A stretch of DNA of 58,885 nt, filler included. It is 2 parts of 2 records of this genome, joined end to end, with 100 filler letters (N's around TTAATTAATTAA, not from the genome) between each part and the next. Parts side by side here need not be neighbours in the genome. Positions count along the whole stretch, not along the records: positions 30,402 to 58,885 come from SRR31156797_8699; 1 more part is not named here. One strand, 5' to 3'. This document shows, piece after piece, positions 30,302 to 45,400 of the stretch. The translations under genes were made by a program, and so were the position numbers. Numbering within the stretch: the first letter of the stretch is position 1; every line of letters starts with the position of its first letter. The notes beneath the pieces are model-generated. The model made no database searches and had not been told where the DNA came from. It saw nothing but the letters and a program-made list of their open reading frames with translations.

Positions 30302-30401
30302 NNNNNNNNNNNNNNNNNNNNNNNNNNNNNNNNNNNNNNNNNNNNTTAATTAATTAANNNNNNNNNNNNNNNNNNNNNNNNNNNNNNNNNNNNNNNNNNN
30401 N
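30302..30401. other. Artificial contig-joining spacer
   Basis: 44 N + TTAATTAATTAA (stop codons in all six frames) + 44 N; genes on both sides are truncated and base composition changes. Confidence 0.98.
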
Positions 30402-30735
30402 TGATGCCTTGCAGCTCAATGAGGAGTTGGGCCGTAAAGTAGGTATGGCTTCTGATTATGGTAATCTCGGTAATATCCGTCGAATTCAGGGGGACCTTGA
30501 AGGTGCTGAAAAATATTATCGTGATGCCTTGCAGCTCAATGAGGAACTAGGTCGCAAAAAAGGTATGGCTTTTGATTACGGCAGTCTAGGGACAATCTGT
30601 CATGCTCAAGGGGATCTTGAAGGTGCAGAGAAGTATTGGAGAAAATCACTTGTTCTATTTATTGATATCGACGCAAAATCTATGGTTAAAAAAGTACAAA
30701 GTTGGCTTGAAGGATTAGCTGCGAATGGTGGTTGA
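30402..30735 (+). CDS. C-terminal fragment of a tetratricopeptide-repeat protein
   Basis: Two 40-aa repeats (GMAxDYGxLGxI...QGDLEGAEKY); 120-bp DNA repeat starting at 30402 and 30522; open from the contig edge. Confidence 0.85.
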
Positions 30736-31440
30736 TGCTGTTCTTTTTTTATGCCCCCAAGGACAACTAGCCACACAAACCCCGCAAATATATGGCATCA
30801 AATTTCCGTATCCCGATACCTTGTTCAAATGATCCACGCAGGAAGATAAGTCGATAGCTTCATTTCGTGATGCGTAATGAAAGGAAGTCTTGACGTTTTT
30901 AATTGCTCCGGCAGGGCAGGCATCGGTGCATTTTGTGCATTTTCCGCAACGGTTTTTGATTGGTTCATCTGTCTCAATACCTAGGTCAGTGAGGATAGTT
31001 GCCAGTCGAATTCGTGGGCCGTATTGCGGAGTAACCAGCAGTAATGATTTGCCTTGCCAGCCTAATCCGGCATTAATCGCTACTGCTTTGTGGGAAAGAT
31101 AGGAGACGAAACGTTCTTCGCAGAGAATTTGACTGGCTGGAATGGGCAGTGCTTTGCCGCCATTGTTCTGGATAAAACTGCTTACCCGGCAGGCAATATT
31201 ATCGAGAAGGGAGTTAACGCGTTGGTAATGCTGGGAATATATTTCGGTGGGAGTATCGACTATAGTGTCGATGATTCCATCTGCCAGCTGAACTGCTATT
31301 GAAATTGCTCGCGGGAAATTATTCAGCAGATCGTCCGGCCTGGTTTCCATCCCTGTCATGCGGGTTGTGTCTGCAACGCCAATCAGGTCCGCGCCCCATT
31401 GTTTTGCGTTGCCGAACAGCTCTTTTTTCAGGTCAGTCAT
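30715..31440 (-). CDS. QueG-like (epoxyqueuosine reductase family) 4Fe-4S protein
   Basis: GADLIGVA, SHKAVAINAGLGWQGKS, YGPRIRLATILTD, CGKCTKCTDACP and CGVCVASCPW; RBS AGGAG before ATG 31440. Confidence 0.75.
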   Translation of the reverse strand: MTDLKKELFGNAKQWGADLIGVADTTRMTGMETRPDDLLNNFPRAISIAVQLADGIIDTIVDTPTEIYSQHYQRVNSLLDNIACRVSSFIQNNGGKALPIPASQILCEERFVSYLSHKAVAINAGLGWQGKSLLLVTPQYGPRIRLATILTDLGIETDEPIKNRCGKCTKCTDACPAGAIKNVKTSFHYASRNEAIDLSSCVDHLNKVSGYGNLMPYICGVCVASCPWGHKKRTASTTIRS

Positions 31441-34729: not shown

Positions 34730-34997
34730 ACTCCCTCCAGTATGTCTATTGCAAATGTACAGTTAAATTGAGCAGGTATTTAACGGTTAATATTTGTACG
34801 ACAATCATCTTGAGCTTTTGATGATACTCGTACCCATGGCGTATAATTCAATTATATGGCACTCTCAAGGTTAATTAGTAATTTCATTTGCGGTTTGAAT
34901 GCTTGTCTAGTCCGGGAAACGTTAAAAATAAAAGGATAGGGCGGAAATAAAAAATTTCCGTATAAAGTTTTTGAACTGCACTCCTAAAGGAAATTTT

Positions 34998-35783
34998 ATG
35001 GCAGATTTTAAAGATTTAACCGATGCTTTAACGGATGAGGTCCTCAGCGATATGGCGGATTCCTTTTTTGGCGCCCGTGTGGACGTGGATGATGCCATTG
35101 AGTTGTTTCATGAGGTTTCGGAGAAGCTTCATGTTAAACTTTATCAGGTTTTCCGGTCCTGTGCGCTGCTTGAGAAGATCTGCCTCGGCCCTGACGGGTT
35201 TAATGATTTTTGGGTCTCAGCCGGGATGAGCAGGAACCGTTTTTATCATCCTGCCGGAGTTGAGTTCGCTCAGATTATTGATAAACCGCCTTTCGCTTTC
35301 ACCGGCAGGGGGGAATATATCAAGTGGTTTGGTATCGGTTACGATATGCTTTCCGCAAGCATTGAAGAATACATGCACGGCTCAATTAAAGAAGATGGAA
35401 ACGGGCGCAAGGTGCGCACTGTTAATCGTGATGATTTTTTCAAGATGGCTGAGGAAATCAATATTCAGATTGAAAAGGTCAACAAGAATGTTACTGCTTC
35501 GGACGTGCTGAAATTTACCAAGTCTCTTGATCCTGAATCTGTGAAGAAGGAGAGCATTGCCGGATGTGTAGGGCCGCAATGTAAGATTATTGATGACGAG
35601 ATGGCTTTCACTGTAATTACGGTTAAGGATATTGATTTTCCAGCTTTTCCGGACCTGCCGGACCGTAAGGATATGGCAACGTATATTTCCGGGTATTGTT
35701 CACAGGTCTGGACCCGCGATAAGGTTCGGGTCAAGGCTTTGATTGAAGATTTGAAAGAGAATGTGAATAAGGAGTTGTTATGA
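34998..35783 (+). CDS. Hypothetical protein
   Basis: Long ORF; ATG at 34998 after AAGGA; stop overlaps the next start (ATGA). Confidence 0.7.
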   Translation: MADFKDLTDALTDEVLSDMADSFFGARVDVDDAIELFHEVSEKLHVKLYQVFRSCALLEKICLGPDGFNDFWVSAGMSRNRFYHPAGVEFAQIIDKPPFAFTGRGEYIKWFGIGYDMLSASIEEYMHGSIKEDGNGRKVRTVNRDDFFKMAEEINIQIEKVNKNVTASDVLKFTKSLDPESVKKESIAGCVGPQCKIIDDEMAFTVITVKDIDFPAFPDLPDRKDMATYISGYCSQVWTRDKVRVKALIEDLKENVNKELL

Positions 35784-36271: not shown

Positions 36272-36416
36272 TTTAGTGACGGTGAAATTGAAGCGATTGT
36301 TGCTGTCTTTCTTTGTTTTTGTTTTGCATTATTCTGCCTGGGTGTGTAGTGTGCCTCTATAGTAGAGTTGTTAAGGGTCAGATTGTATTGTTTAACTGTA
36401 TTGAATGGAGGGGCAA

Positions 36417-36779
36417 ATGCAGAAGTTTTTATCATTTACTTTGTTGTTCGTTTTTCTTTATACAGCAACCGCTCTCGCTGATGATTTTATTCCGATTGAA
36501 GTTGAAAATAAATGTTCATGCTACCTGTCTATCCCTTCTGTAGTAAAAGGGACAACTCATAAAACCAATGGTCTGGTTTCCCCCGGTGAATCTAAGGTTT
36601 TGTACTATAATAAAGATTATTTGAAGTGGACCAACAATAAGGTCATAATTTATATGCAGACCAGTAAGTTGCAAAAGCTTAAGGATGAAGCTTATCCCGT
36701 TGGTTCGCGTCCTAAGAAAATTGTGGTGAAAGCTTCAGGCGTTGATTTGGGTTGTAATGCAAAAGTTAGCGTCCAGTAA
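36417..36779 (+). CDS. Small hypothetical exported protein
   Basis: RBS GGAGG; signal peptide ending ATALA; beta-rich mature part with Cys residues. Confidence 0.65.
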   Translation: MQKFLSFTLLFVFLYTATALADDFIPIEVENKCSCYLSIPSVVKGTTHKTNGLVSPGESKVLYYNKDYLKWTNNKVIIYMQTSKLQKLKDEAYPVGSRPKKIVVKASGVDLGCNAKVSVQ

Positions 36780-37943
36780 TTAAATCCTCCTTCTGCTGCC
36801 GCAAAAGGTCTTGATTTTCATGGCCCGCATATTACGCAGTTTTTCTCCTGATTCTTTACCAAGATTCCTCTCGTGGGCTGGCAGGGAGACTTTCAGAATC
36901 TCTGCCAGATCTGCGGGAGCGTGTCCAAGTACCCCTTCTCCTCGGTCTGCATTGCAAAGATTTATCATGTTTCCAAGTAACCCGGAGACATGCAGTTTCA
37001 TCAGCAGGTCTACCTTGGTTCCGGGTCTCAGTTCCTGATAATTACCAGCTTTCATGTGTAATTCTGCAGCGTTTTCCCCGGCACGGATGAATTTTGCCGG
37101 GAGCATGAGTCTGCTCCCCAGTTCTTTCGCAGGAAGCATGCCTACTTTGTCATGGCCGTAGTGTGAGGGCAGGATGTCCGGTGCAGTCAGCACTTTGCCC
37201 AGATCATGACACATGGCCATCCAGCAGGTTAGTGGATCACCTGCAACTTTATCCATTATTTCAGCTGTATGTCCGGCAACGGATTTATCGTGATATTCAG
37301 GAGGGCCGGCCGGAATTTGATCCGCTCCGGAAAATTCAGTGAACCACGGTTCAAGGCAATTTCCCTGAATTAGTAAACGCAAGAAGTTTCCGGGTTTTTG
37401 ACCATTTAAGCCCTTACGCAACTCCACGCCGATCCGATCCGGGGCAATGTCTGCAAACCAGCCGTTAACAACACAACGCTTCATTTCCGAAAGCAGTTCC
37501 GGGTGAGGGCTGAAATCCGGGAACCGGGCCATGAAAGTTGCTGCTCTGAATATACGTAGAGGGTCTTCTTTGAAGGTGTCCGGGAAAGATGGGCGTAAAA
37601 TTCGGTTGTGTAGGTCTTTTAACCCCTTAGGGTGGGCGTATAGTTCTCCGTCTTCAGCCAGTGCGAAGCTATTAACAGTGAAGTCACGTGCTTTTAGGTC
37701 AAGGTCGATAGTTTCCTCTGTGTTGTTGCCTCTGGCCCTTGGGAAGGAAAATTCGAGACCTTTAAGATAAAAAATTTCATAAGATTTGCCCACTGGGCGG
37801 GCCTTAGGAAATGCAGCGAGAAACTCTTCGGCAGAACCGGATGCGATAAGGTAATCCAAATCTTTTGGAGTTCTACCGAGCAGTAAGTCTCTTACAGATC
37901 CTCCTGCAATTAATATTTTTAAATTATTATGATTTTTGCTCAT
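36780..37943 (-). CDS. Class II tRNA nucleotidyltransferase with HD domain (probably CC-adding)
   Basis: GGSVRDLLLG..DLD, RDFTVN, EDPLR, CHDLGK. Confidence 0.85.
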   Translation of the reverse strand: MSKNHNNLKILIAGGSVRDLLLGRTPKDLDYLIASGSAEEFLAAFPKARPVGKSYEIFYLKGLEFSFPRARGNNTEETIDLDLKARDFTVNSFALAEDGELYAHPKGLKDLHNRILRPSFPDTFKEDPLRIFRAATFMARFPDFSPHPELLSEMKRCVVNGWFADIAPDRIGVELRKGLNGQKPGNFLRLLIQGNCLEPWFTEFSGADQIPAGPPEYHDKSVAGHTAEIMDKVAGDPLTCWMAMCHDLGKVLTAPDILPSHYGHDKVGMLPAKELGSRLMLPAKFIRAGENAAELHMKAGNYQELRPGTKVDLLMKLHVSGLLGNMINLCNADRGEGVLGHAPADLAEILKVSLPAHERNLGKESGEKLRNMRAMKIKTFCGSRRRI

Positions 37944-38032
37944 TTGTAGATCTTTTGATTTTAATGGCCGATAACAAATCTTTAATGATTAGCGTTCTTG
38001 ATTAATTTAAGTTTGATGGTATCGTATGATCA

Positions 38033-38713
38033 ATGAAAAATAAAATACTCATAATAATGTTTTTTGCTGTTGTTGTGGTGCTGTTTTTTGCCTTTGATTT
38101 GGATAAGTTCCTGACTCTTGAATATTTAAAAAATTCACGGCAGGAGTTTCAGTTTTTTTATGATCAGAACCCATTTCTAACTGTTTTTTCTTTCTTTTTG
38201 GTTTATGTGCTGGTTGTGGGCGTAAATCTTCCCGGAGCAACGGTGCTTGGGCTTGCTGGTGGAGCCTTGTTCGGCTTTACCGTGGGTGTGTTGACCATTT
38301 CTTTTGCCAGCACTATCGGTGCTACATTGGCCTGTCTTTTTTCACGTTATCTGTTTAGGGATTACGTGCAGCGTAAGTTTGGGGACCGGCTGGAAAAAGT
38401 TAATCGGGGCATTGAAGAAGAAGGTGCGTTTTATCTTTTTACCATGCGGCTTATCCCGGCCATTCCTTTTGTGGTTATCAACTTGGTCATGGGGCTTACT
38501 CCGATCAGGTTAAGGACTTTTTATTGGGTTTCACAGCTGGGTATGCTACCTGGAACAATGGTTTATGTTAATGCCGGAAAGGAACTCGGCCAGATTGATT
38601 CCTTATCTGGGATTGTTCAGCCTGGAGTTTTGATTTCGTTTGTGCTGCTGGGGATATTCCCATTGGTTGTGAAGAAGGTGGTAGGACTTGTTAAGGTCCG
38701 TCGGAATGTGTAA
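38033..38713 (+). CDS. TVP38/TMEM64 (DedA/VTT-domain) membrane protein
   Basis: LPGATVL..GGALFG, GATLA...SRYL, RLIPAIPFVVIN, GMLPGT. Confidence 0.9.
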   Translation: MKNKILIIMFFAVVVVLFFAFDLDKFLTLEYLKNSRQEFQFFYDQNPFLTVFSFFLVYVLVVGVNLPGATVLGLAGGALFGFTVGVLTISFASTIGATLACLFSRYLFRDYVQRKFGDRLEKVNRGIEEEGAFYLFTMRLIPAIPFVVINLVMGLTPIRLRTFYWVSQLGMLPGTMVYVNAGKELGQIDSLSGIVQPGVLISFVLLGIFPLVVKKVVGLVKVRRNV

Positions 38714-38752
38714 TATTTAGAAAAAATTTATTTTTATTAAGTACGGTTAAAG

Positions 38753-39928
38753 ATGATTGTCAGGACAGCGCCAAGTATTCGGACCTACCATAAGGGTAAG
38801 GTTATTTTTCACGAAGGACAGGAAAGCAAGATTGCTTATATGATCAAGTCTGGAACTGTCGATATTTTCAAGATAATCGACAAGAAAAAGACCGTCATGG
38901 GAACCCTGCGCCAAGGTGATATTTTTGGTGAAATGTCTTTGCTTGCTAATCAGAAACGCACGGCCAGTGCAGAGGCCTCCAGTTTCTGCGAATTGGTGGT
39001 ACTGACCGAAGAGATGATGAACAAGTTGCTTCGGGCATCTCCCGAGACAGTGCGTAAGATGTTGGAACTGTTGGCTAAGAGGGTTGCTGCTACTGATATG
39101 AAAGCTTCCAACTCTGATCAGAATGATTCTTTTATCGCTCTTGCAACCATTCTTGATCTCGCTTACCGGGAATTTGCCTATACCCCCCGTAATAAACAGC
39201 GTGAAATCGAAAATTACGAAATGGGTCTTTCTGTGCAGTCATATACCGATACAGTCAAAAATCTGGCCGCCTTTTCGAATCTTGAGATTGAATCTTTTTT
39301 GGAAATAGTTTTCAAGCTGCGATTGATTGATATAAAAAGCGTCAAAAAGGGTGATAAAAGCGCATTTGTTGAGCGATATATCAACATTAAAAAATTTGAG
39401 CAGTTTATGCCTAATTTGCGCAACCTTTATAAGCAGATGAGGGAACTTGGTGCGAATGTGGATCAGCGCATGACTTTTATGAGTTTCAGTGATCTGGCAC
39501 AAAGAACCGGCAGTACTCCAGATCTGATTTATAAAAAGGTAATTAAAGAAGAGATGCCTGAAAATCTGCTCTTTTTTAATCGGGAAAAAGCGCTTGAGTG
39601 GGGCAAAGGCAAGGATCCTGATTTTTTTAAGAAGTTTCGCAGACCTCGCAAAGCCCTTGAAGATCTTGAATCTGTGGAAGATATTATTTTTATTGATAAT
39701 CCAACCCTTAAAAAGGCTCTTGAAGGATTCAATTATTATAATATTTCGGTTCTCTATTCGGCCATGGATCAGCAGGGGAGGGATAAGCTTAAGCGAAACA
39801 TAGGTAAGAAGGTTGCTCAGATTTTACTTCGTGAACCACCTACCAATCGTGACCCCAGTGATCCGGAAGTCCTTGAATGTTGTGATGAACTCCTTGATAT
39901 TGTCCGAAAATTGAAGGGAGTGAAGTAG
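38753..39928 (+). CDS. Cyclic-nucleotide-binding protein with HTH-like middle region and FliG-C-like C-terminus (paralog 1)
   Basis: IFHEGQ, YMIKSGTV, FGEMSLL...RTASA phosphate-binding cassette; C-terminal EDIIFIDNPTLKKAL...RNIGKKVAQIL...LLDIVRKL. Confidence 0.85.
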   Translation: MIVRTAPSIRTYHKGKVIFHEGQESKIAYMIKSGTVDIFKIIDKKKTVMGTLRQGDIFGEMSLLANQKRTASAEASSFCELVVLTEEMMNKLLRASPETVRKMLELLAKRVAATDMKASNSDQNDSFIALATILDLAYREFAYTPRNKQREIENYEMGLSVQSYTDTVKNLAAFSNLEIESFLEIVFKLRLIDIKSVKKGDKSAFVERYINIKKFEQFMPNLRNLYKQMRELGANVDQRMTFMSFSDLAQRTGSTPDLIYKKVIKEEMPENLLFFNREKALEWGKGKDPDFFKKFRRPRKALEDLESVEDIIFIDNPTLKKALEGFNYYNISVLYSAMDQQGRDKLKRNIGKKVAQILLREPPTNRDPSDPEVLECCDELLDIVRKLKGVK

Positions 39929-39929
39929 T

Positions 39930-41069
39930 ATGGCAGCTGTCAGGCCACAAACTAAAACATTTCTTAAGGGTCAAGTTATTTTCCGGGAAGGAGAGAAGGG
40001 GCATGTTGCCTACATGATCCAGTCCGGTTCTGTAAATATTGTTAAAAATATTAAAGGAAAAAGACAGATCCTTGCTACCTTGGGGCCGGGAGAGCTTTTT
40101 GGTGAAATGGCTATCATTTCGAAATGTGAAAGGGTTGCCGGAGCAGAAGCTGGTACAGAGTGCGTTCTTCTGGAATTAACCGCACGGTTGATTCTTTTGC
40201 TGCTTAAGAAAAGTCATCCTACCGTGTTCCACTTAACCAGAGTGCTGGCTTCACGTCTTGCCCGTGCCGACCGCGCAGTATCTGAAAGTCGCAGTGATAA
40301 TTCGTGGCTTACTTTTTGTCGATTGCTGCATATGAAACACCGTATTTTTGAGATTGCTCCCAAAAGTGAGGATGCGCCTATCGGGATTACCCTTGAAGAT
40401 TTATCCCGGGAATTTTCCGAAATTACAAACGCTACGCAACATGAGATTGACCGTCACCTTAAGTCTGCAATCGGTTTTAATATGGTTTCGGTTAACAAAA
40501 TAGCTTCACAAAGTTATCTATCTATCAACAATCCTGACGATTTTTTGGAAATAGCCAAGAATCTTTCAGAGGATATCAATAAGTTCAGCGGTAAGGTTTT
40601 TCTTTCAGATTTTGTGGACATTTATGATTTTTCATCCATTGTCGATTCCAACCCTGAGATGATCTATAAAAAAATAGGGGTCCGAGACTTTCCGGAAGAT
40701 ATCTGCATGTTGCATAAGGAAGCAACTTCCAAATGGGTCGAGAAGAAAGGAGCGCAATATTTCAAGGAAGTTAAGCGTAAGCGCAAGTCCATTGATGAGC
40801 TTGAAGGCGTTGAAGATATCGTCTTTGTAGATATCGGAACTTTGAAATTGGTTTTCCGCCAGCTTGGCTATTATAAGCTGGGTATCCTACTGGCAATTGC
40901 CGGGGATGAAGCGAAAAAACGTATTCTGGCAGCCATTTCGACAAAGATTGCCGCAGCCATTACCCGGGATTCTCGCTCTTCTGATGCCATTGACCAGAGC
41001 GAAGCCGATGATGTGGAAGAAGAACTCATTGATATGATCAGGGAGATCAAGTCTTCTAAAAAAGAATAA
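39930..41069 (+). CDS. Cyclic-nucleotide-binding protein with HTH-like middle region and FliG-C-like C-terminus (paralog 2)
   Basis: IFREGE, YMIQSGSV, FGEMAII...RVAGA; colinear with paralog 1; C-terminal EDIVFVD...KRILAAISTKIAAAI...LIDMIREI. Confidence 0.85.
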   Translation: MAAVRPQTKTFLKGQVIFREGEKGHVAYMIQSGSVNIVKNIKGKRQILATLGPGELFGEMAIISKCERVAGAEAGTECVLLELTARLILLLLKKSHPTVFHLTRVLASRLARADRAVSESRSDNSWLTFCRLLHMKHRIFEIAPKSEDAPIGITLEDLSREFSEITNATQHEIDRHLKSAIGFNMVSVNKIASQSYLSINNPDDFLEIAKNLSEDINKFSGKVFLSDFVDIYDFSSIVDSNPEMIYKKIGVRDFPEDICMLHKEATSKWVEKKGAQYFKEVKRKRKSIDELEGVEDIVFVDIGTLKLVFRQLGYYKLGILLAIAGDEAKKRILAAISTKIAAAITRDSRSSDAIDQSEADDVEEELIDMIREIKSSKKE

Positions 41070-41174
41070 TGTTGCACATCGCGCTGGCTTTGGTTAATAA
41101 TATAATTAAGCTAAAGTATTAATAAAAACAGGGTTAACCTTGTCAACCAGCCTTAGAACATGGGATAGTGCAGC

Positions 41175-42098
41175 ATGATTACACGAATTACCATTATCAG
41201 CGGTAAGGACCCCAGTCCTCTCCCCAAGACTAATCCGGAAAATCTTTTTCAGGCCCATCCCCTCTGGGCGCGTGATATTGAAACTTTCGGTCCTTGGAAC
41301 AGCGAGGATGCAGAGTACAGGACTTATTCAACATGGATATCCGGTTCACGGACCGGGGTTCCTGTTGCGGTTTGCGGCTCTTGTGTTTCCAGTCTTGATG
41401 TTGCTTGGCGACTGAATGCCCTTGAGGATCTTGCGGAATGGGGAAGCGTACTGGCTGTTGAACAAAATACCGGACGCGGACAAGTTCGCCGCGAATGGAT
41501 TTCTCCTCCCGGAAATGTATACGGCACCATCAAGTGGCCTGCACTGCCGGAAGTAAAGCCCGGTGAAGTCCGGCCTGTCTGGAACCGTATTCTCCCTCTT
41601 ATTGTCGGCTATCTGACCTGTAATGCTCTGCGTGATCTTGGTGTGGACGCCCAGCTTAAGTGGCCTAACGATATTTTGATCGACGGGAAGAAGGCTGGTG
41701 GTATACTTATCGAAGAGCGCGGAAACGCAACTATGGTCGGCATTGGCTTGAATCTGTCTTATGCACCTGCTCGCGAATTGCTTCGGGTTGACCATGCTGT
41801 GCCCGCCGGACAGCTGAATACTGATACAATGCAGCTTGGACCTTTGGAAACTTGGGTTGAATTAATCAAGTATTTCAGGGGTAATTTTGATCAGGTTATT
41901 TCCATGAAGAATACCGATGATTTTCTTTATGAACTTCAAGACCGTCTGGTCTGGTTCGGTGAGGAAGTGAAGATTGTTGATGGTCCGGAAGGAGTAGAAC
42001 GTGGTGTTATTTGCGGCTTACGGTCCGATGGCGGACTTGTCGTTGATCACAATGGTGAGCAACACGAGATTTATTCCGGCTCGGTAATGCCTTTATAA
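41175..42098 (+). CDS. birA: Biotin-protein ligase
   Basis: QNTGRGQVRREWISPPG, KWPNDILIDGKKAGGILIE, VGIGLN; no obvious N-terminal HTH. Confidence 0.93.
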   Translation: MITRITIISGKDPSPLPKTNPENLFQAHPLWARDIETFGPWNSEDAEYRTYSTWISGSRTGVPVAVCGSCVSSLDVAWRLNALEDLAEWGSVLAVEQNTGRGQVRREWISPPGNVYGTIKWPALPEVKPGEVRPVWNRILPLIVGYLTCNALRDLGVDAQLKWPNDILIDGKKAGGILIEERGNATMVGIGLNLSYAPARELLRVDHAVPAGQLNTDTMQLGPLETWVELIKYFRGNFDQVISMKNTDDFLYELQDRLVWFGEEVKIVDGPEGVERGVICGLRSDGGLVVDHNGEQHEIYSGSVMPL

Positions 42099-42400
42099 TG
42101 CAGCTAGATACTGTTTTTGCTTGACATACGGGCTTTGCTGGGGAATTTGTTTTCTGTTGCCGGGTGAACTGAAGGGAAGCTTTTCATCCGATCACAGCAA
42201 CCCCGGAATGCAGCGGAGTTCTTCCGTTTGCGCCCGAATCAGTATCATTTATTGTCAGCGCCCTTGTCTTTTTGCAAAGCAGGGTGCTATGTCTGTTTAT
42301 ATTCTGTTAATTTCTTTTCGATTACTGATTATCTTATTTACCCGGATTTTATAGAAAAAATCCAAGAGCATATCTTTTAATGATGTGTAAGGAGGAAGTG

Positions 42401-45400
42401 ATGGCTGGTAAGACGGAAGAAGCAGTTTCCGCGAAAAATGCGGGAACAGCAGCTCCCAAGAAGTCTCAGGCTAAAAAACAGCTTGAAAAGAAGCTGATTC
42501 TAACCGGTGCCGATATCGTTAAAATCGGTGAAGATGCAGAACTTCTGGTCGGCGGAAAGAACTACAATACCGCATTGATCAGTCAGGTTGAAGGCATCAG
42601 ATCTCCCCAGTTCAGGGCTGTTTCATCTATTGCATTCCATACGCTGCTGGATGAAACCAAAGTCAACGCAAGTGTTGTCAGGGCTGTTGTAGACAGTGAA
42701 TATAACGCAGTGGACTGGAGCAGTGAAGAAGTTAACAGTGACAGTGAATTTTTACAGAAGTTTGTCCGTTCCATCGCTCAGGTAATTAAGAAAGAAGCGG
42801 GCAAGCATACTGAAACTCAGATTCAGCTACGTACTTTTATTAATAACGTTGTTGAAGGGTTTGCAACCTCTCCTGAAGGAATCGACCAGTTACGCAAAAG
42901 ATCAGTGCTTGTTCAGAGTGCTATTCTTTCAGTGGTACTGCCTAAGGACGTCGAAACTGCAGTCAGGGAAGCTTATCTCTCAATCTGCAAAGATGCAGGG
43001 CTTGAGAATGAGCCAGTGGCTGTACGTTCCTCCGCAGCCGGTGAGGACAGCCGTAAGAAGGCTTTTGCCGGACTTCAGGATACCTACCTTAATATTGTCG
43101 GCGAAGACCAGTGCGCCGAAGCATATCATTGGGACTGCGCATCTGCTTATAACCTGCGCAGTATGACTTATCGCCGTGAAGCCATTCTTGATGCCGTTAC
43201 CTTGGCCGAGAATACCGGCGACGCTTCTATTGCTGAAGATGCCAAGAAAGAGTGGGCTATTGAGAATACCTCCCTTTCTGTATGCATCATGCGTATGATC
43301 AACCCGGTGATTTCCGGTACCGCATTCAGTGCAGATACTGCTACCGGTTGCCGTGGGACTGATCGTAAGGATCTTGTTTCCATTGATGCCAGTTATGGTC
43401 TCGGCGAAGCAGTTGTTGGTGGTATGGTCACCCCGGATAAATTCTACGTATTCCAGCGTGATGACGGTTCTGAAGTTGTTGTCCGTAACATGGGTAGCAA
43501 GGATAAGAAGATCGTTTACAGCGAAAAAGGCGGAACCAAAGTTGAAAAGGTTCAGCCTGGTGCTGTTTATCGCTGGGCTTTGTCCCTTGCTCAGGCTGAA
43601 GAAGTAGCCAAGGGCGTGCGTTCCATCAGTGAGGCATACGGCGGTATGATTATGGATACCGAATTCTGCCTTGATGCGGCTGACCGTCTCTGGTTTGTTC
43701 AGGCCCGTCCTGAAACCCGCTGGAACGAGGAGTTCGAGCAGCATCCCGATTCCATATTCATGCGCAGGCTTGAGGTTGACCCCAAAGAGCTTGAAGAAGC
43801 TGAAGTCGTACTTGAGGGTAACGGTGCATCACGCGGAGCAGGACAGGGAACAGTTAAATACCTCCGTTCAGCTCTTGAGCTTAATAAAATCCATAAAGGC
43901 GATATTCTCGCGGCTGAACGTACCGACCCGGATATGGTTCCGGGCATGCGTATTGCCTCCGGTATTCTTGCCGATGTGGGTGGAGATACCAGCCATGCCG
44001 CGATCACTTCTCGTGAGCTCGGAATTCCGGCAATTATCGGAATCCAGAGACTAGAAGTTCTGCGCTCTCTTGAAGGGCAGGAAATTACTGTTGATGGTTC
44101 CCGTGGTAAGGTCTACCGCGGCGCACTGCCTCTCATCGAGGTGGGCGGAACCATCAATGTGGCTGAACTTCCGGCTACCAAGACCAAGGTTGGTTTGATT
44201 CTCGCTGACGTGGGGCAGTCTCTGTTTCTTTCCCGTCTGAGAGAAGTGCCTGATTTTGAGGTCGGTCTGTTGCGTGCTGAGTTCATGCTCGGTAACGTGG
44301 GTGTGCATCCGCTGGCCCTTGAAGCATATGACAACGGCACTCTTGATAGGTTGGTTCAGGATAAGCTTGATGAGCTGGATGGAAAACTGACCACAGTTAT
44401 GAAAACCCAACTCGATTCCGGCCTTATTACTCTGAATATTAATCTCAGGGAATATATTGGTGCGTTGACCGGTCTGACCGAAGAAATGGATTCGATGGCC
44501 AACGCCAATACCGCCCGCGGTACTGAAGAGGTTTTGGCCATGCACCGCAAGCTGCGTGAGCTGGACAAAAAACTCGATTATTACCTCGAGCATGCCACTG
44601 AAAGCCTCTACACCCTGAAAACTTCCGTGGACATTGAAGAGCATCTTCGCGGTGTTCTCGGTATTCACGCCGGGGAGCATGCTGATTCCAAGTTCATCTA
44701 CAAACGTACTGAATCCCTTGATGAACTGCCGGAGATGCTTGTTAAGGCCAAAGATAACCCCGTGGTTCTCGAATACATTGAACAGATCAAAGCACTGCGT
44801 GAAGAAGTGGCTCTCAAAATGGGCCTTAAGTCCGAGATGGATGAAGTCACCACTCTTCGCCAGCGCATTACCGATATCATTAAATCCCGAGGTCTGAGAA
44901 CTGGTAAGGAAAACTATATCCAGACATTGTCTCAGGGCTTGGCTCTGTTTGCCATGGCTTTTTATGGCAAGGATATTGTTTACAGAACCACCGACTTTAA
45001 GACCAACGAATACCATAACCTGCTTGGCGGTCTGCTCTTCGAGCATTTTGAGGACAACCCCATGCTTGGGTATCGCGGTGTTTCCAGAAATATCCATGAC
45101 TGGGAGTTGGAAGCCTTCAAACTGTCCCGTGGTGTTTTCGGCGGTAAGAACCTTCATATCATGCTGCCTTTCGTACGCACTATTGAAGAAGCGCGCAGCA
45201 TGAAGCGTTATCTCTCACAGGTTCATAATCTTGATTCCGGCAAGGACGGTCTGAAGCTGATCCTCATGGCCGAAATTCCCAGTAACGCCGTACTCAGCAA
45301 GGAATTTATCAAGGAAGTCGACGGATTCTCCATCGGTTCCAACGATATGACCCAGCTGGTGCTCGGTACTGACCGTGATAACCCCAGTCTGCAGCATATC

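Follow-up and report, generated by a model that had tools for sequence, protein, structure and literature searches.

Why should two proteins that carry sensors for cyclic nucleotide monophosphates (cNMP) end in what looks like the torque domain of the flagellar rotor protein FliG? The question is raised by two adjacent genes, here called cNMP1 and cNMP2, in a stretch of DNA of 58,885 nucleotides (the window), the right-hand part of which, positions 30402 to 58885, comes from the record SRR31156797_8699. A cNMP sensor joined to a FliG C-terminal (FliG-C) domain is a real, conserved and uncharacterised architecture, which we would class with the second-messenger regulators of the stator-rotor interface, and the reading that we favour, at about even chances, is that the family comprises cNMP-gated mimics of FliG that would dock on the stator protein MotA and control stator use. 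The two genes and their junction are as follows.

38753..39928, + strand: cNMP1, the upstream paralog, 391 amino acids, with a cNMP sensor, a CRP-like middle and a FliG-C-like end (open reading frame (ORF), Pfam, hhalign)
39930..41069, + strand: cNMP2, the downstream paralog, 379 amino acids, with an architecture like that of cNMP1 (ORF, Pfam, AlphaFold2 (AF2) model with a predicted local distance difference test score (pLDDT) of 77)
39916..39932, + strand: gene junction, with GGGAG at 39916-39920, the stop codon TAG at 39926-39928, one spacer base and ATG at 39930-39932 (sequence)

The coordinates and lengths of both ORFs in the initial annotation of the window were exact, and its description of paralogs 1 bp apart also stands, as shown by a common architecture, 28% identity over the full length and a spacing of 1 nt (TAG-T-ATG). 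A Shine-Dalgarno-like GGGAG lies nine bases 5' of the cNMP2 ATG, within the 3' end of cNMP1. This layout, with the 1-nt gap and the GGGAG inside cNMP1, is compatible with translational coupling, and the two proteins are probably translated together.

The C-terminal module is a FliG-C domain

39668..39916, + strand: FliG-C-like six-helix module of cNMP1, residues 306-388 (Pfam, hhalign; register from the 1qc7 alignment)
40797..41063, + strand: FliG-C-like six-helix module of cNMP2, residues 290-378 (Pfam, PDB profile, AF2, Foldseek, VIA)

The Pfam family FliG_C was matched by cNMP2 at 29.2 bits over residues 291-375 (cut-off 23.3) and by cNMP1 at a sub-threshold 19.2 bits. In a PDB profile search with the last 152 residues (13 sequences), the best seven matches were all FliG chains, including 1qc7 (E 1.5e-6), 3ajc, 4fhr and 1lkv (about 1e-6) and Salmonella 8umd (4e-4), and the profile alignment to FliG was gap-free across the torque helix. 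Each of the 13 C-terminal pieces also matched FliG_C on its own. The AF2 model of the C-terminal 152-residue part (pLDDT 80) gave FliG structures for all of the top 16 of 28 Foldseek matches, with a target-normalised TM-score of 0.85 and 1.8 A over 86 columns for 1qc7_B, and 1.8 A over 79 columns for the FliG-C chain of the MotAB-FliG complex 8ucs.

VIA, a Foldseek-independent fold comparison over 48,161 chains, returned FliG-C at Z 13.0, 12.4, 11.9 and 11.3, with 86-88 residues aligned at 1.6-1.9 A. Its top match was the FliG-C domain of T. maritima, 1qc7 (Z 13.0, 88 of 89 residues, 1.8 A), and the next rows were FliG-M (Z 7.7 and 7.1), FliG-N (7.0 and 6.3) and the MgtE N domain (5.4). The C-terminus of the cNMP1 clade (8 sequences), compared by hhalign with 19 true FliG proteins, matched at 97.7% and E 2.2e-12 over 82 columns.

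HMMER and hhalign set the same register, in which EDI.. is aligned with EDI/L.. and ..KK/TK-IA.. with ..KR/ER-A.., and the cNMP1-clade register agrees with that of FliG. The initial annotation had aligned this end with FliG-C by eye and named Pfam and AlphaFold with Foldseek as the means to check it; these searches gave a FliG_C match and top Foldseek matches that were all FliG. Because the profile, Foldseek, VIA and hhalign comparisons agree, the by-eye alignment was correct. These results indicate that the C-terminal module is a genuine FliG-C homolog and fold in both proteins.

The other domains of FliG are absent. For FliG_M, there was no match at E<=1 in either window protein, and the sole match for FliG_N (13.8 bits, cut-off 25) is a cross-match inside the C-terminal module, at residues 315-374. 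True FliG proteins retrieved by the profile of the C-terminal module all carry FliG_M. Since they lack FliG_N and FliG_M, the window proteins cannot be rotor subunits.

Among 1.84 billion representatives, the profile of the FliG-C-like module matched 128 proteins at E<=0.001, of which 62 have a cNMP domain, 11 more are fragments of the family and 55 are others. Pfam checks of 15 of these 55 gave 14 FliG-type proteins and one spurious spidroin, and the remaining 40 are, by length, mostly short fragments or FliG-sized. Outside FliG itself, the module thus appears to be confined to this family, within a 128-match search in which 15 of the 55 others were checked against Pfam. A search of the ESM Atlas gave no usable match.

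In the relative G001, the only Pfam match of a protein of 366 amino acids beside a glutamine synthetase gene (L087, G001:C1:1224671-1225771) is an N-terminal one to FliG_C, below threshold at 17.8 bits. The genome may hold in it a further FliG-type domain that is detached from the rotor protein.

The core family member is encoded with a dedicated stator

Full-length relatives bear Desulfovibrionaceae names only (Maridesulfovibrio, Pseudodesulfovibrio, Salidesulfovibrio and Desulfovibrio inopinatus), plus one record labelled with a Bacteroidota genus, and their annotations go no further than Crp/Fnr or cNMP-binding protein. When one genome per species was scanned, 10 of the 80 kept loci had a whole-protein match, all 10 in Desulfovibrionaceae, and the other 70 matched at the N-terminus only, chiefly in the cNMP domain. 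Locus L001 reproduces the gene order of the window at 83-84% identity, and L002-L010 each carry a single family gene, elsewhere in the genome, that is 35-41% identical to both window proteins. Homologs of 388 amino acids were considered as orthologs of cNMP1 and ruled out, since they form a third group with a different gene context. In a comparative sample of 251 genomes from Desulfovibrionaceae, with the family called at E<=1e-10, the family is present in 76: 62 with one copy, four with two and 10 with three.

The single-copy loci show the genomic context of the core member. In all nine of them (L002-L010), as in 30 of the 30 best loci, motA and motB directly follow the family gene, and these three genes are the only ones common to L002-L010. 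At L004, the stop codon of the family gene overlaps the GTG start of motA (GTGA). This linked-type MotA, defined by a score of at least 436 bits as against at most 206 bits for the other MotA paralogs (18 genomes), was found in 66 of the 251 genomes, in all 66 directly downstream of a family gene on the same strand, and is absent from all 175 family-negative genomes. Of the family-positive genomes, 10 lack it: nine carry a divergent subfamily, and in one the family gene is cut by a contig end. These results indicate that the core family member heads an operon of three genes, the other two of which encode a dedicated, accessory MotA/MotB stator of the flagellar type.

The flagellar type of this stator is seen in its nearest relatives and in its sequence motifs. 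The PDB chains nearest to the linked MotA are PomA (E 6.5e-36) and flagellar MotA, and the nearest NCBIfam models are PomA, MotP and MotA, all below cut-off; for the linked MotB, they are MotD/MotS. The prolines of the third and fourth transmembrane (TM) segments of MotA are kept, and MotB has the channel Asp, a plug motif and an OmpA-type peptidoglycan-binding domain. A defence reading of the Zorya/Pycsar kind was rejected: the linked MotA (258 amino acids) has no PADLOC match, and the MotB has only a generic ZorB/MotB likeness.

In 17 of 17 genomes, the linked stator stands beside one to four other MotA-type stators, and it is therefore never the sole stator. The relatives G001 and G002 each have five MotA-type stator paralogs, besides ExbB/TolQ-type genes (loci L091-L102), and the family-positive genomes that lack a pair of the window's kind have two to five. 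The L004 stator does not lie in a flagellar gene cluster and has phospholipases and glycosyltransferases as neighbours.

The rotor-facing loop sets the linked stators apart. Four unlinked paralogs in G001 and G002 have a basic first position in the motif R(R/K/M)...LE, whereas the linked MotAs mostly read (T/S/A)(S/A)K-G-E-E-x-L-E, in which the first basic residue is lost and the next Lys and the Glu are kept.

True FliG, recognised by its FliG_M marker, is present in 228 of the 251 genomes: in 75 of the 76 family-positive and in 153 of the 175 family-negative ones (Fisher p 0.003). The family-positive exception, G074, is a fragmented assembly. On whether homologs are common in non-flagellated genomes, a point raised in the initial annotation, the answer is that, in these 251 genomes, they are not.

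FliG-like charges in the torque helix

In E. coli, MotA R90 pairs with FliG D288/D289 and MotA E98 with FliG R281, according to the accessible part of the source (PMC12505986). We tabulated the corresponding positions in 63 family members, with the register set by the 1qc7 alignment.

39809-39811, 39830-39832 and 39833-39835, + strand: torque-helix equivalents K353, R360 and E361 of cNMP1 (1qc7 register)
40944-40946, 40965-40967 and 40968-40970, + strand: torque-helix equivalents K339, R346 and D347 of cNMP2 (1qc7 register)

R281 position: Lys in 35/35 motA-linked members, 8/8 of the cNMP2 clade and 8/8 of the cNMP1 clade
D288 position: Asp or Glu in 28/35 motA-linked members (Lys 2, Ala 2, Gly 2, Ser 1); Lys or Arg in 7/8 of the cNMP2 clade; His, Arg, Gln, Ser, Ser, Asp, Asp and Glu in the cNMP1 clade
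D289 position: Glu in 34/35 motA-linked members; Asp or Glu in 8/8 of the cNMP2 clade; Glu in 8/8 of the cNMP1 clade
R297 position: Asp or Glu in 34/35 motA-linked members; Asp in 7/8 and Asn in one of the cNMP2 clade; Ser 3, Asp 3, Val 1 and Asn 1 in the cNMP1 clade

In G001 and G002, the true FliG has the canonical residues (R...ED...K). The signature K...(D/E)E of the linked members indicates that the operon copy resembles the FliG torque helix, with Lys for Arg. Its obligate genomic coupling to a private flagellar-type stator goes together with conservation of these FliG-like charges.

At the R281, D288 and D289 positions, the window proteins read K, R, E (cNMP1) and K, R, D (cNMP2) and do not have the FliG charge set, much as first annotated, with Lys in place of the torque Arg and an acidic pair that reads R-E and R-D. 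The pair members keep the Lys at the R281 position (K112) and the acidic D289-equivalent in 16 of 16 cases. In this register, one of the two FliG positions that face MotA R90 is specifically altered in the window pair.

These observations also bear on the idea that the operon copy and its MotAB form a stand-alone, non-flagellar machine, either an ion-driven 5:2 motor of its own or an ion path under cNMP gating, in which the soluble FliG-C protein would be the sole 'rotor' or activator and to which the window pair would add extra inputs or outputs, a reading that we consider improbable. In such a machine, a soluble dimeric sensor would offer two torque domains to the private stator and either switch ion flow on, by unplugging the stator as is proposed for contact with FliG, or itself be driven mechanically by that flow, a mechanism that we hold to be just as doubtful. 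It would accommodate the strict co-occurrence and adjacency with a distinct MotA clade (66/66; 0/175), a linked stator that is never the only one, the position of the L004 stator away from a flagellar gene cluster, a rotor-facing motif without the first basic residue still present in the four unlinked paralogs of G001 and G002, and an R297-equivalent that is acidic, unlike that of FliG. However, the MotB has a plug helix and a peptidoglycan-binding OmpA domain and the MotA is nearest to the flagellar PomA, MotP and MotA models; 75 of the 76 family-positive genomes are flagellated, as judged by true FliG; no further gene that could serve as load or output is conserved across L002-L010; and there is no match to ZorA or another defence system.

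The sensor and the middle domains

38780..39037, + strand: cNMP-binding domain of cNMP1, residues 10-95, cassette FGEMSLL...RTASA (Pfam; cassette invariant)
39954..40208, + strand: cNMP-binding domain of cNMP2, residues 9-93, cassette FGEMAII...RVAGA (Pfam; cassette invariant)
40296..40541, + strand: CRP-like winged-helix region of cNMP2, residues 123-204, net charge -4 (Foldseek, model)
40611..40763, + strand: small helical domain of cNMP2, residues 228-278, with the family-invariant Y246, K248, P255 and W269 (VIA, alignment)

The N-terminal cNMP domain with its phosphate-binding cassette, which the initial annotation had recognised, matched Pfam cNMP_binding at 74.2 bits in cNMP1 and 73.1 bits in cNMP2 (cut-off 27.5), and the Gly, Glu and Arg of the cassette (G58, E59 and R68) are invariant in a 25-sequence alignment of the family. 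Each of the relatives G001 and G002 has genes for three class III nucleotidyl cyclases. No PilZ domain, the receptor for cyclic di-GMP (c-di-GMP), was among the Pfam matches of the window proteins at E<=1.

Absent from the initial annotation were a CRP-like winged helix and a second, small helical domain in the middle of the protein. The full-length AF2 model of cNMP2 (pLDDT 77, predicted TM-score 0.34) was aligned by Foldseek over 200-215 columns to entire CRP, GlxR and CAP chains, including their DNA-binding domain, and residues 123-204 form a helix-helix-hairpin after a long C-helix in the model. Because the full model aligns to the whole of these chains, the region around 123-204 of cNMP2 is assigned a CRP winged-helix topology. 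The small helical domain has a weak likeness to MerR, the RdfS excisionase, TipAL and BldC (VIA Z 3.5-4.1). An HTH_17 identity for it was rejected: one divergent member matched at E 8e-4, but 0 of 13 members did at E<=1. Ahead of the FliG-C module comes a basic linker (net charge +4 to +5). The domain order of each protein is thus a CRP-type cNMP domain with a long C-helix, a CRP-like winged helix, a small helical domain, the basic linker and FliG-C.

With such a middle region, the proteins could be CRP-type transcription factors tethered to stators, in which the FliG-C module would hold or release them at free membrane stators, so that expression would follow both the cNMP and the stator pool. 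The Foldseek alignment to whole CRP, GlxR and CAP chains is what this idea would predict, and the best NCBIfam match of both proteins is CRP (55.6 and 43.0 bits, below the equivalog cut-off of 266), which in cNMP1 reaches position 178 of the 214 in the model. The operon copy has a basic winged helix (mean net charge +4.0), the small second domain is weakly like the helix-turn-helix (HTH) domains of MerR and excisionase, and the family is annotated as Crp/Fnr regulators.

Several properties argue against it. Neither window protein matched HTH_Crp_2 or any other HTH family of Pfam at E<=1, and HTH_17 was found in 0 of the 13 members scanned. The winged helix of the pair is neutral or acidic (net charge 0 in cNMP1 and -4 in cNMP2; clade means -0.3 and -1.4), and the small helical domain ranges from neutral to acidic across the three groups (-0.3 to -5.1). 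Conservation in the middle region is among the lowest in the protein (0.47-0.60 in the pair), and the coupling to motA suggests a stoichiometric partner, not a regulator. We regard the transcription-factor reading as unlikely, though still worth weighing.

Origin of the window pair

38033..38713, + strand: gene for a VTT/DedA-type membrane protein (Pfam VTT_dom, 90.8 bits)

The origin of the pair was followed in a midpoint-rooted maximum-likelihood tree from IQ-TREE with 63 rows, from which a 263-amino-acid fragment and identical copies had been dropped. The cNMP1 and cNMP2 groups fall into separate clades, both with 100% support and a long stem (0.98 and 0.62, respectively), and the branching order within one clade mirrors that within the other. 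A larger clade of 46 rows encloses the two, and all but one of its other members are motA-linked.

The locus has the order VTT gene, cNMP1, cNMP2 and birA in eight of eight cases (the window, L001 and L147-L152). In four of the five pair-less genomes, birA abuts the gene for the CCA-adding enzyme (CCA/HD) instead, which indicates that VTT-cNMP1-cNMP2 is a three-gene insertion. The pair occurs only alongside a solitary operon copy (10/10 three-copy genomes). In the seven genomes compared, mean identity was 0.47-0.69 for the pair as against 0.72-0.90 for the operon copy, and the pair evolves faster in every domain; its FliG-C module is conserved like the remaining protein (0.55 and 0.64). On these comparisons, the window pair is a derived, co-inherited duplicate of the operon member, displaced from the stator genes along with the VTT gene.

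An independent tandem pair of family genes is found directly upstream of motA-motB at L133 (G044) and L134 (G099). Duplication of the family gene is thus recurrent, and a tandem pair can remain stator-linked.

The VTT gene also occurs on its own: four of the five pair-less genomes have a VTT ortholog in an unrelated context. In L159 and L160 (G154 and G208), it lies between the genes for glucokinase and a pyridine-nucleotide-disulfide oxidoreductase, and in two of the four it is about 1.2 kb from another MotA-type gene, which has no motB directly after it. VTT was considered as a stator-linked gene on this basis and rejected, because glucokinase intervenes and the constant neighbour is the oxidoreductase; we took the proximity as coincidence.

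It may be asked whether the FliG-C fold of the window pair has left the stator altogether and is re-used as a protein-protein or oligomerisation module, for instance to join the two paralogs or to bind a different partner such as the co-inserted VTT protein. That the pair has no stator genes next to it, was relocated as a unit with the VTT gene, stands on long clade stems (0.98, 0.62), changes faster than the operon copy in every domain and has a D288-equivalent that is reversed or unconstrained would all be in keeping with re-use. However, all 16 pair members retain the R281-position Lys as well as the acidic D289-equivalent, the FliG-C module is no less conserved than the rest of the protein, the pair is never found without the operon copy (10/10), and VTT orthologs without the pair occur in four of the five pair-less genomes in unrelated contexts. 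Re-use away from the stator, which would apply to the window pair only, is in our judgement a poor prospect.

A proposed cNMP-gated FliG mimic at the stator

In the reading of the family as cNMP-gated FliG mimics, the FliG-C module would dock on the rotor-facing cytoplasmic surface of MotA, like the FliG torque helix, and the binding of a cNMP to the CRP-like dimer would alter the capture or release of that surface. Capture or release would in turn govern engagement of the accessory stator with the real FliG ring; the effect could be to mask the stator, to hold it in reserve or to prime it. The duplicate that the window carries lies off the stator locus, occurs only with the operon copy, evolves faster and has an altered D288-equivalent, and we therefore read the pair as auxiliary modulators, which would act on the stator circuit of the operon copy in a cNMP-dependent manner, with a changed or broadened stator specificity. 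The motor modulation proposed in the initial annotation has gained a link to MotA through the motA adjacency in 66 of 66 genomes and the K...(D/E)E signature, both found in relatives of the window pair; the link is strong but indirect.

A number of observations weigh against this reading. The charges do not fit in every respect: the D288-equivalent is Arg in the window pair, and the Lys or Arg of the cNMP2 clade would repel a basic MotA residue, while in the cNMP1 clade the position varies freely. Seven of the 35 linked members have no acidic residue there, and the R297-equivalent is acidic or neutral in all clades, unlike in FliG, with the opposite charge in linked members. The first basic residue of the R90-type motif is lost in the linked MotA, so that charge pairing of the FliG type is not exactly alike, and the variants at family position 119 showed, by eye, no clear pattern of compensating charge change in the linked MotA loop.

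The genomic evidence has its own counterweights. In the window, cNMP1 and cNMP2 are flanked by the VTT gene and birA, with no stator gene adjoining. Nine divergent members, in genomes without a linked-type stator, stand beside genes for RNase Y and response-regulator-TPR proteins, which shows that the module can exist without that stator. The co-occurrence test with FliG is low in power because 228 of the 251 genomes have FliG anyway, and the tree came from a quick search.

Within the divergent subfamily, L138-L145 (G059, G117, G042, G097, G067, G102, G023 and G150) have no linked stator. The neighbours of L138, L139, L141-L143 and L145 include RNase Y, response-regulator-TPR and CBM48-like proteins or glycosyltransferases, and in L145 the torque-helix region is absent in the alignment.

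If docking on MotA is true, the family would provide the first cNMP-controlled regulator that acts directly on the motor rather than via transcription, a natural 'FliG decoy', and a handle on stator choice in bacteria with up to five stator sets. Structural biology of the stator would in that case gain a soluble, naturally evolved MotA ligand, and the charge variants, K...RE and K...RD in the window pair as against K...DE in the operon copy, would be informative. If instead the stand-alone machine is true, it would be a new kind of 5:2-motor system, in which a rotor domain has left the flagellum and come under the control of a second messenger.

The window and its neighbouring genes

The window joins two contigs. 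Positions 30303-30401 are a run of N with TTAATTAATTAA mid-way, an artificial linker with stops in six frames. The left part (1-30302) has a GC content of 0.33-0.39 and genes of Bacteroidota type (DUF5723, PD40-OmpA, GH94 and DDAH), and the named relatives of its DUF5723 protein are labelled Bacteroidota (Marinilabiliaceae, Bacteroidales). An FtsK gene of the left part breaks off at the linker and has the 4TM and alpha domains only.

The right part (30402-58885) is collinear with Maridesulfovibrio relatives from about 30745 on, and both cNMP-FliG-C genes lie wholly within this Maridesulfovibrio-like contig. Right after the linker, positions 30402-30740 hold TPR-like coding repeats, in which a stretch starting tgatgccttgcagctcaatgagga is repeated about 120 bases on; this segment has 68-70% similarity to three overlapping places in G001. 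Two ORFs have no Pfam family at E<=1, one of 270 amino acids at 34971-35783, which keeps 77% identity in L001, and one of 124 amino acids at 36405-36779.

The Pfam scan of the ORFs of the right-hand contig gave no flagellar genes, in agreement with the statement of the initial annotation that none are nearby. Scans of 37800-42500 gave nine promoter-like sites (8.8 expected) and nine terminator-like sites (5.2 +/- 2.4 expected) and yielded no operon information.

Comparison with known systems

Full-text searches, with subscription journals outside their scope, gave no published description of a protein with the cNMP plus FliG_C (PF00027 + PF01706) architecture, in line with the initial annotation, which knew of no characterised protein of this kind.

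The closest relative in fold is FliG, the C-terminal six-helix domain of which is homologous and shares the register of the window proteins, including the EDI start and the torque helix. The window proteins differ from FliG in that they lack FliG_N, which binds FliF, and FliG_M, which binds FliM, and carry a cNMP sensor in their place. Lys stands where FliG has the torque Arg, the R297-equivalent is acidic or neutral, and the D288-equivalent is Arg in the window pair. A FliG-type helical fold outside the rotor has a precedent in the N-terminal domain of MgtE; that domain is a much weaker match to the module (Z 5.4 and 4.8, as against 13.0 for FliG-C), and neither protein has a MgtE_N Pfam match at E<=1.

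CRP/FNR factors and the window proteins share the order of cNMP domain, long C-helix and winged-helix-like region. The window proteins are about 180 residues longer at the C-terminus, with no detectable HTH_Crp_2 and an acidic or neutral winged helix. In the part of the literature available (PMC13432727), cAMP is described as acting on motility only via CRP-dependent transcription.

Two further systems act on the stator. FapA of Borrelia burgdorferi masks the MotA-FliG interface via a beta-solenoid and a coiled coil (10.64898/2026.10.14.759253), which is an action of the kind proposed for the cNMP-FliG-C family. As far as the accessible text of that report goes, FapA differs from the family in having no FliG fold, in being a scaffold component resident in the motor, and in having no nucleotide sensor described. 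FlgX of Campylobacter jejuni, a small cytoplasmic protein, binds the cytoplasmic region of the stator units and, from the portions available (PMC11725899, PMC6686046), is a tetrameric stator stabiliser of the PilZ family, not a FliG mimic.

Also among the nearest in mode of action are the PilZ-type c-di-GMP regulators of the motor, YcgR, FlgZ and MotI, which are likewise second-messenger receptors with post-translational action at the stator-rotor interface, the action proposed here for the cNMP-FliG-C family. The two groups differ in the messenger (c-di-GMP versus cNMP) and in the domain that makes the contact (a PilZ fold versus a copied rotor domain), and a dedicated stator is co-encoded in the cNMP-FliG-C family. 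Neither these regulators nor FlgX or FapA use a FliG fold or, as far as described, a cNMP sensor. Known post-translational motor regulators reach the stator-rotor interface through c-di-GMP and PilZ domains or through dedicated scaffolds, whereas this family copies the stator-contact domain of the rotor and fuses it to a sensor of the cAMP/cGMP type, its core member being encoded with a private stator in all cases analysed. YcgR in particular is described, in the available part of its source, as a brake that acts on motor components (PMC13432727).

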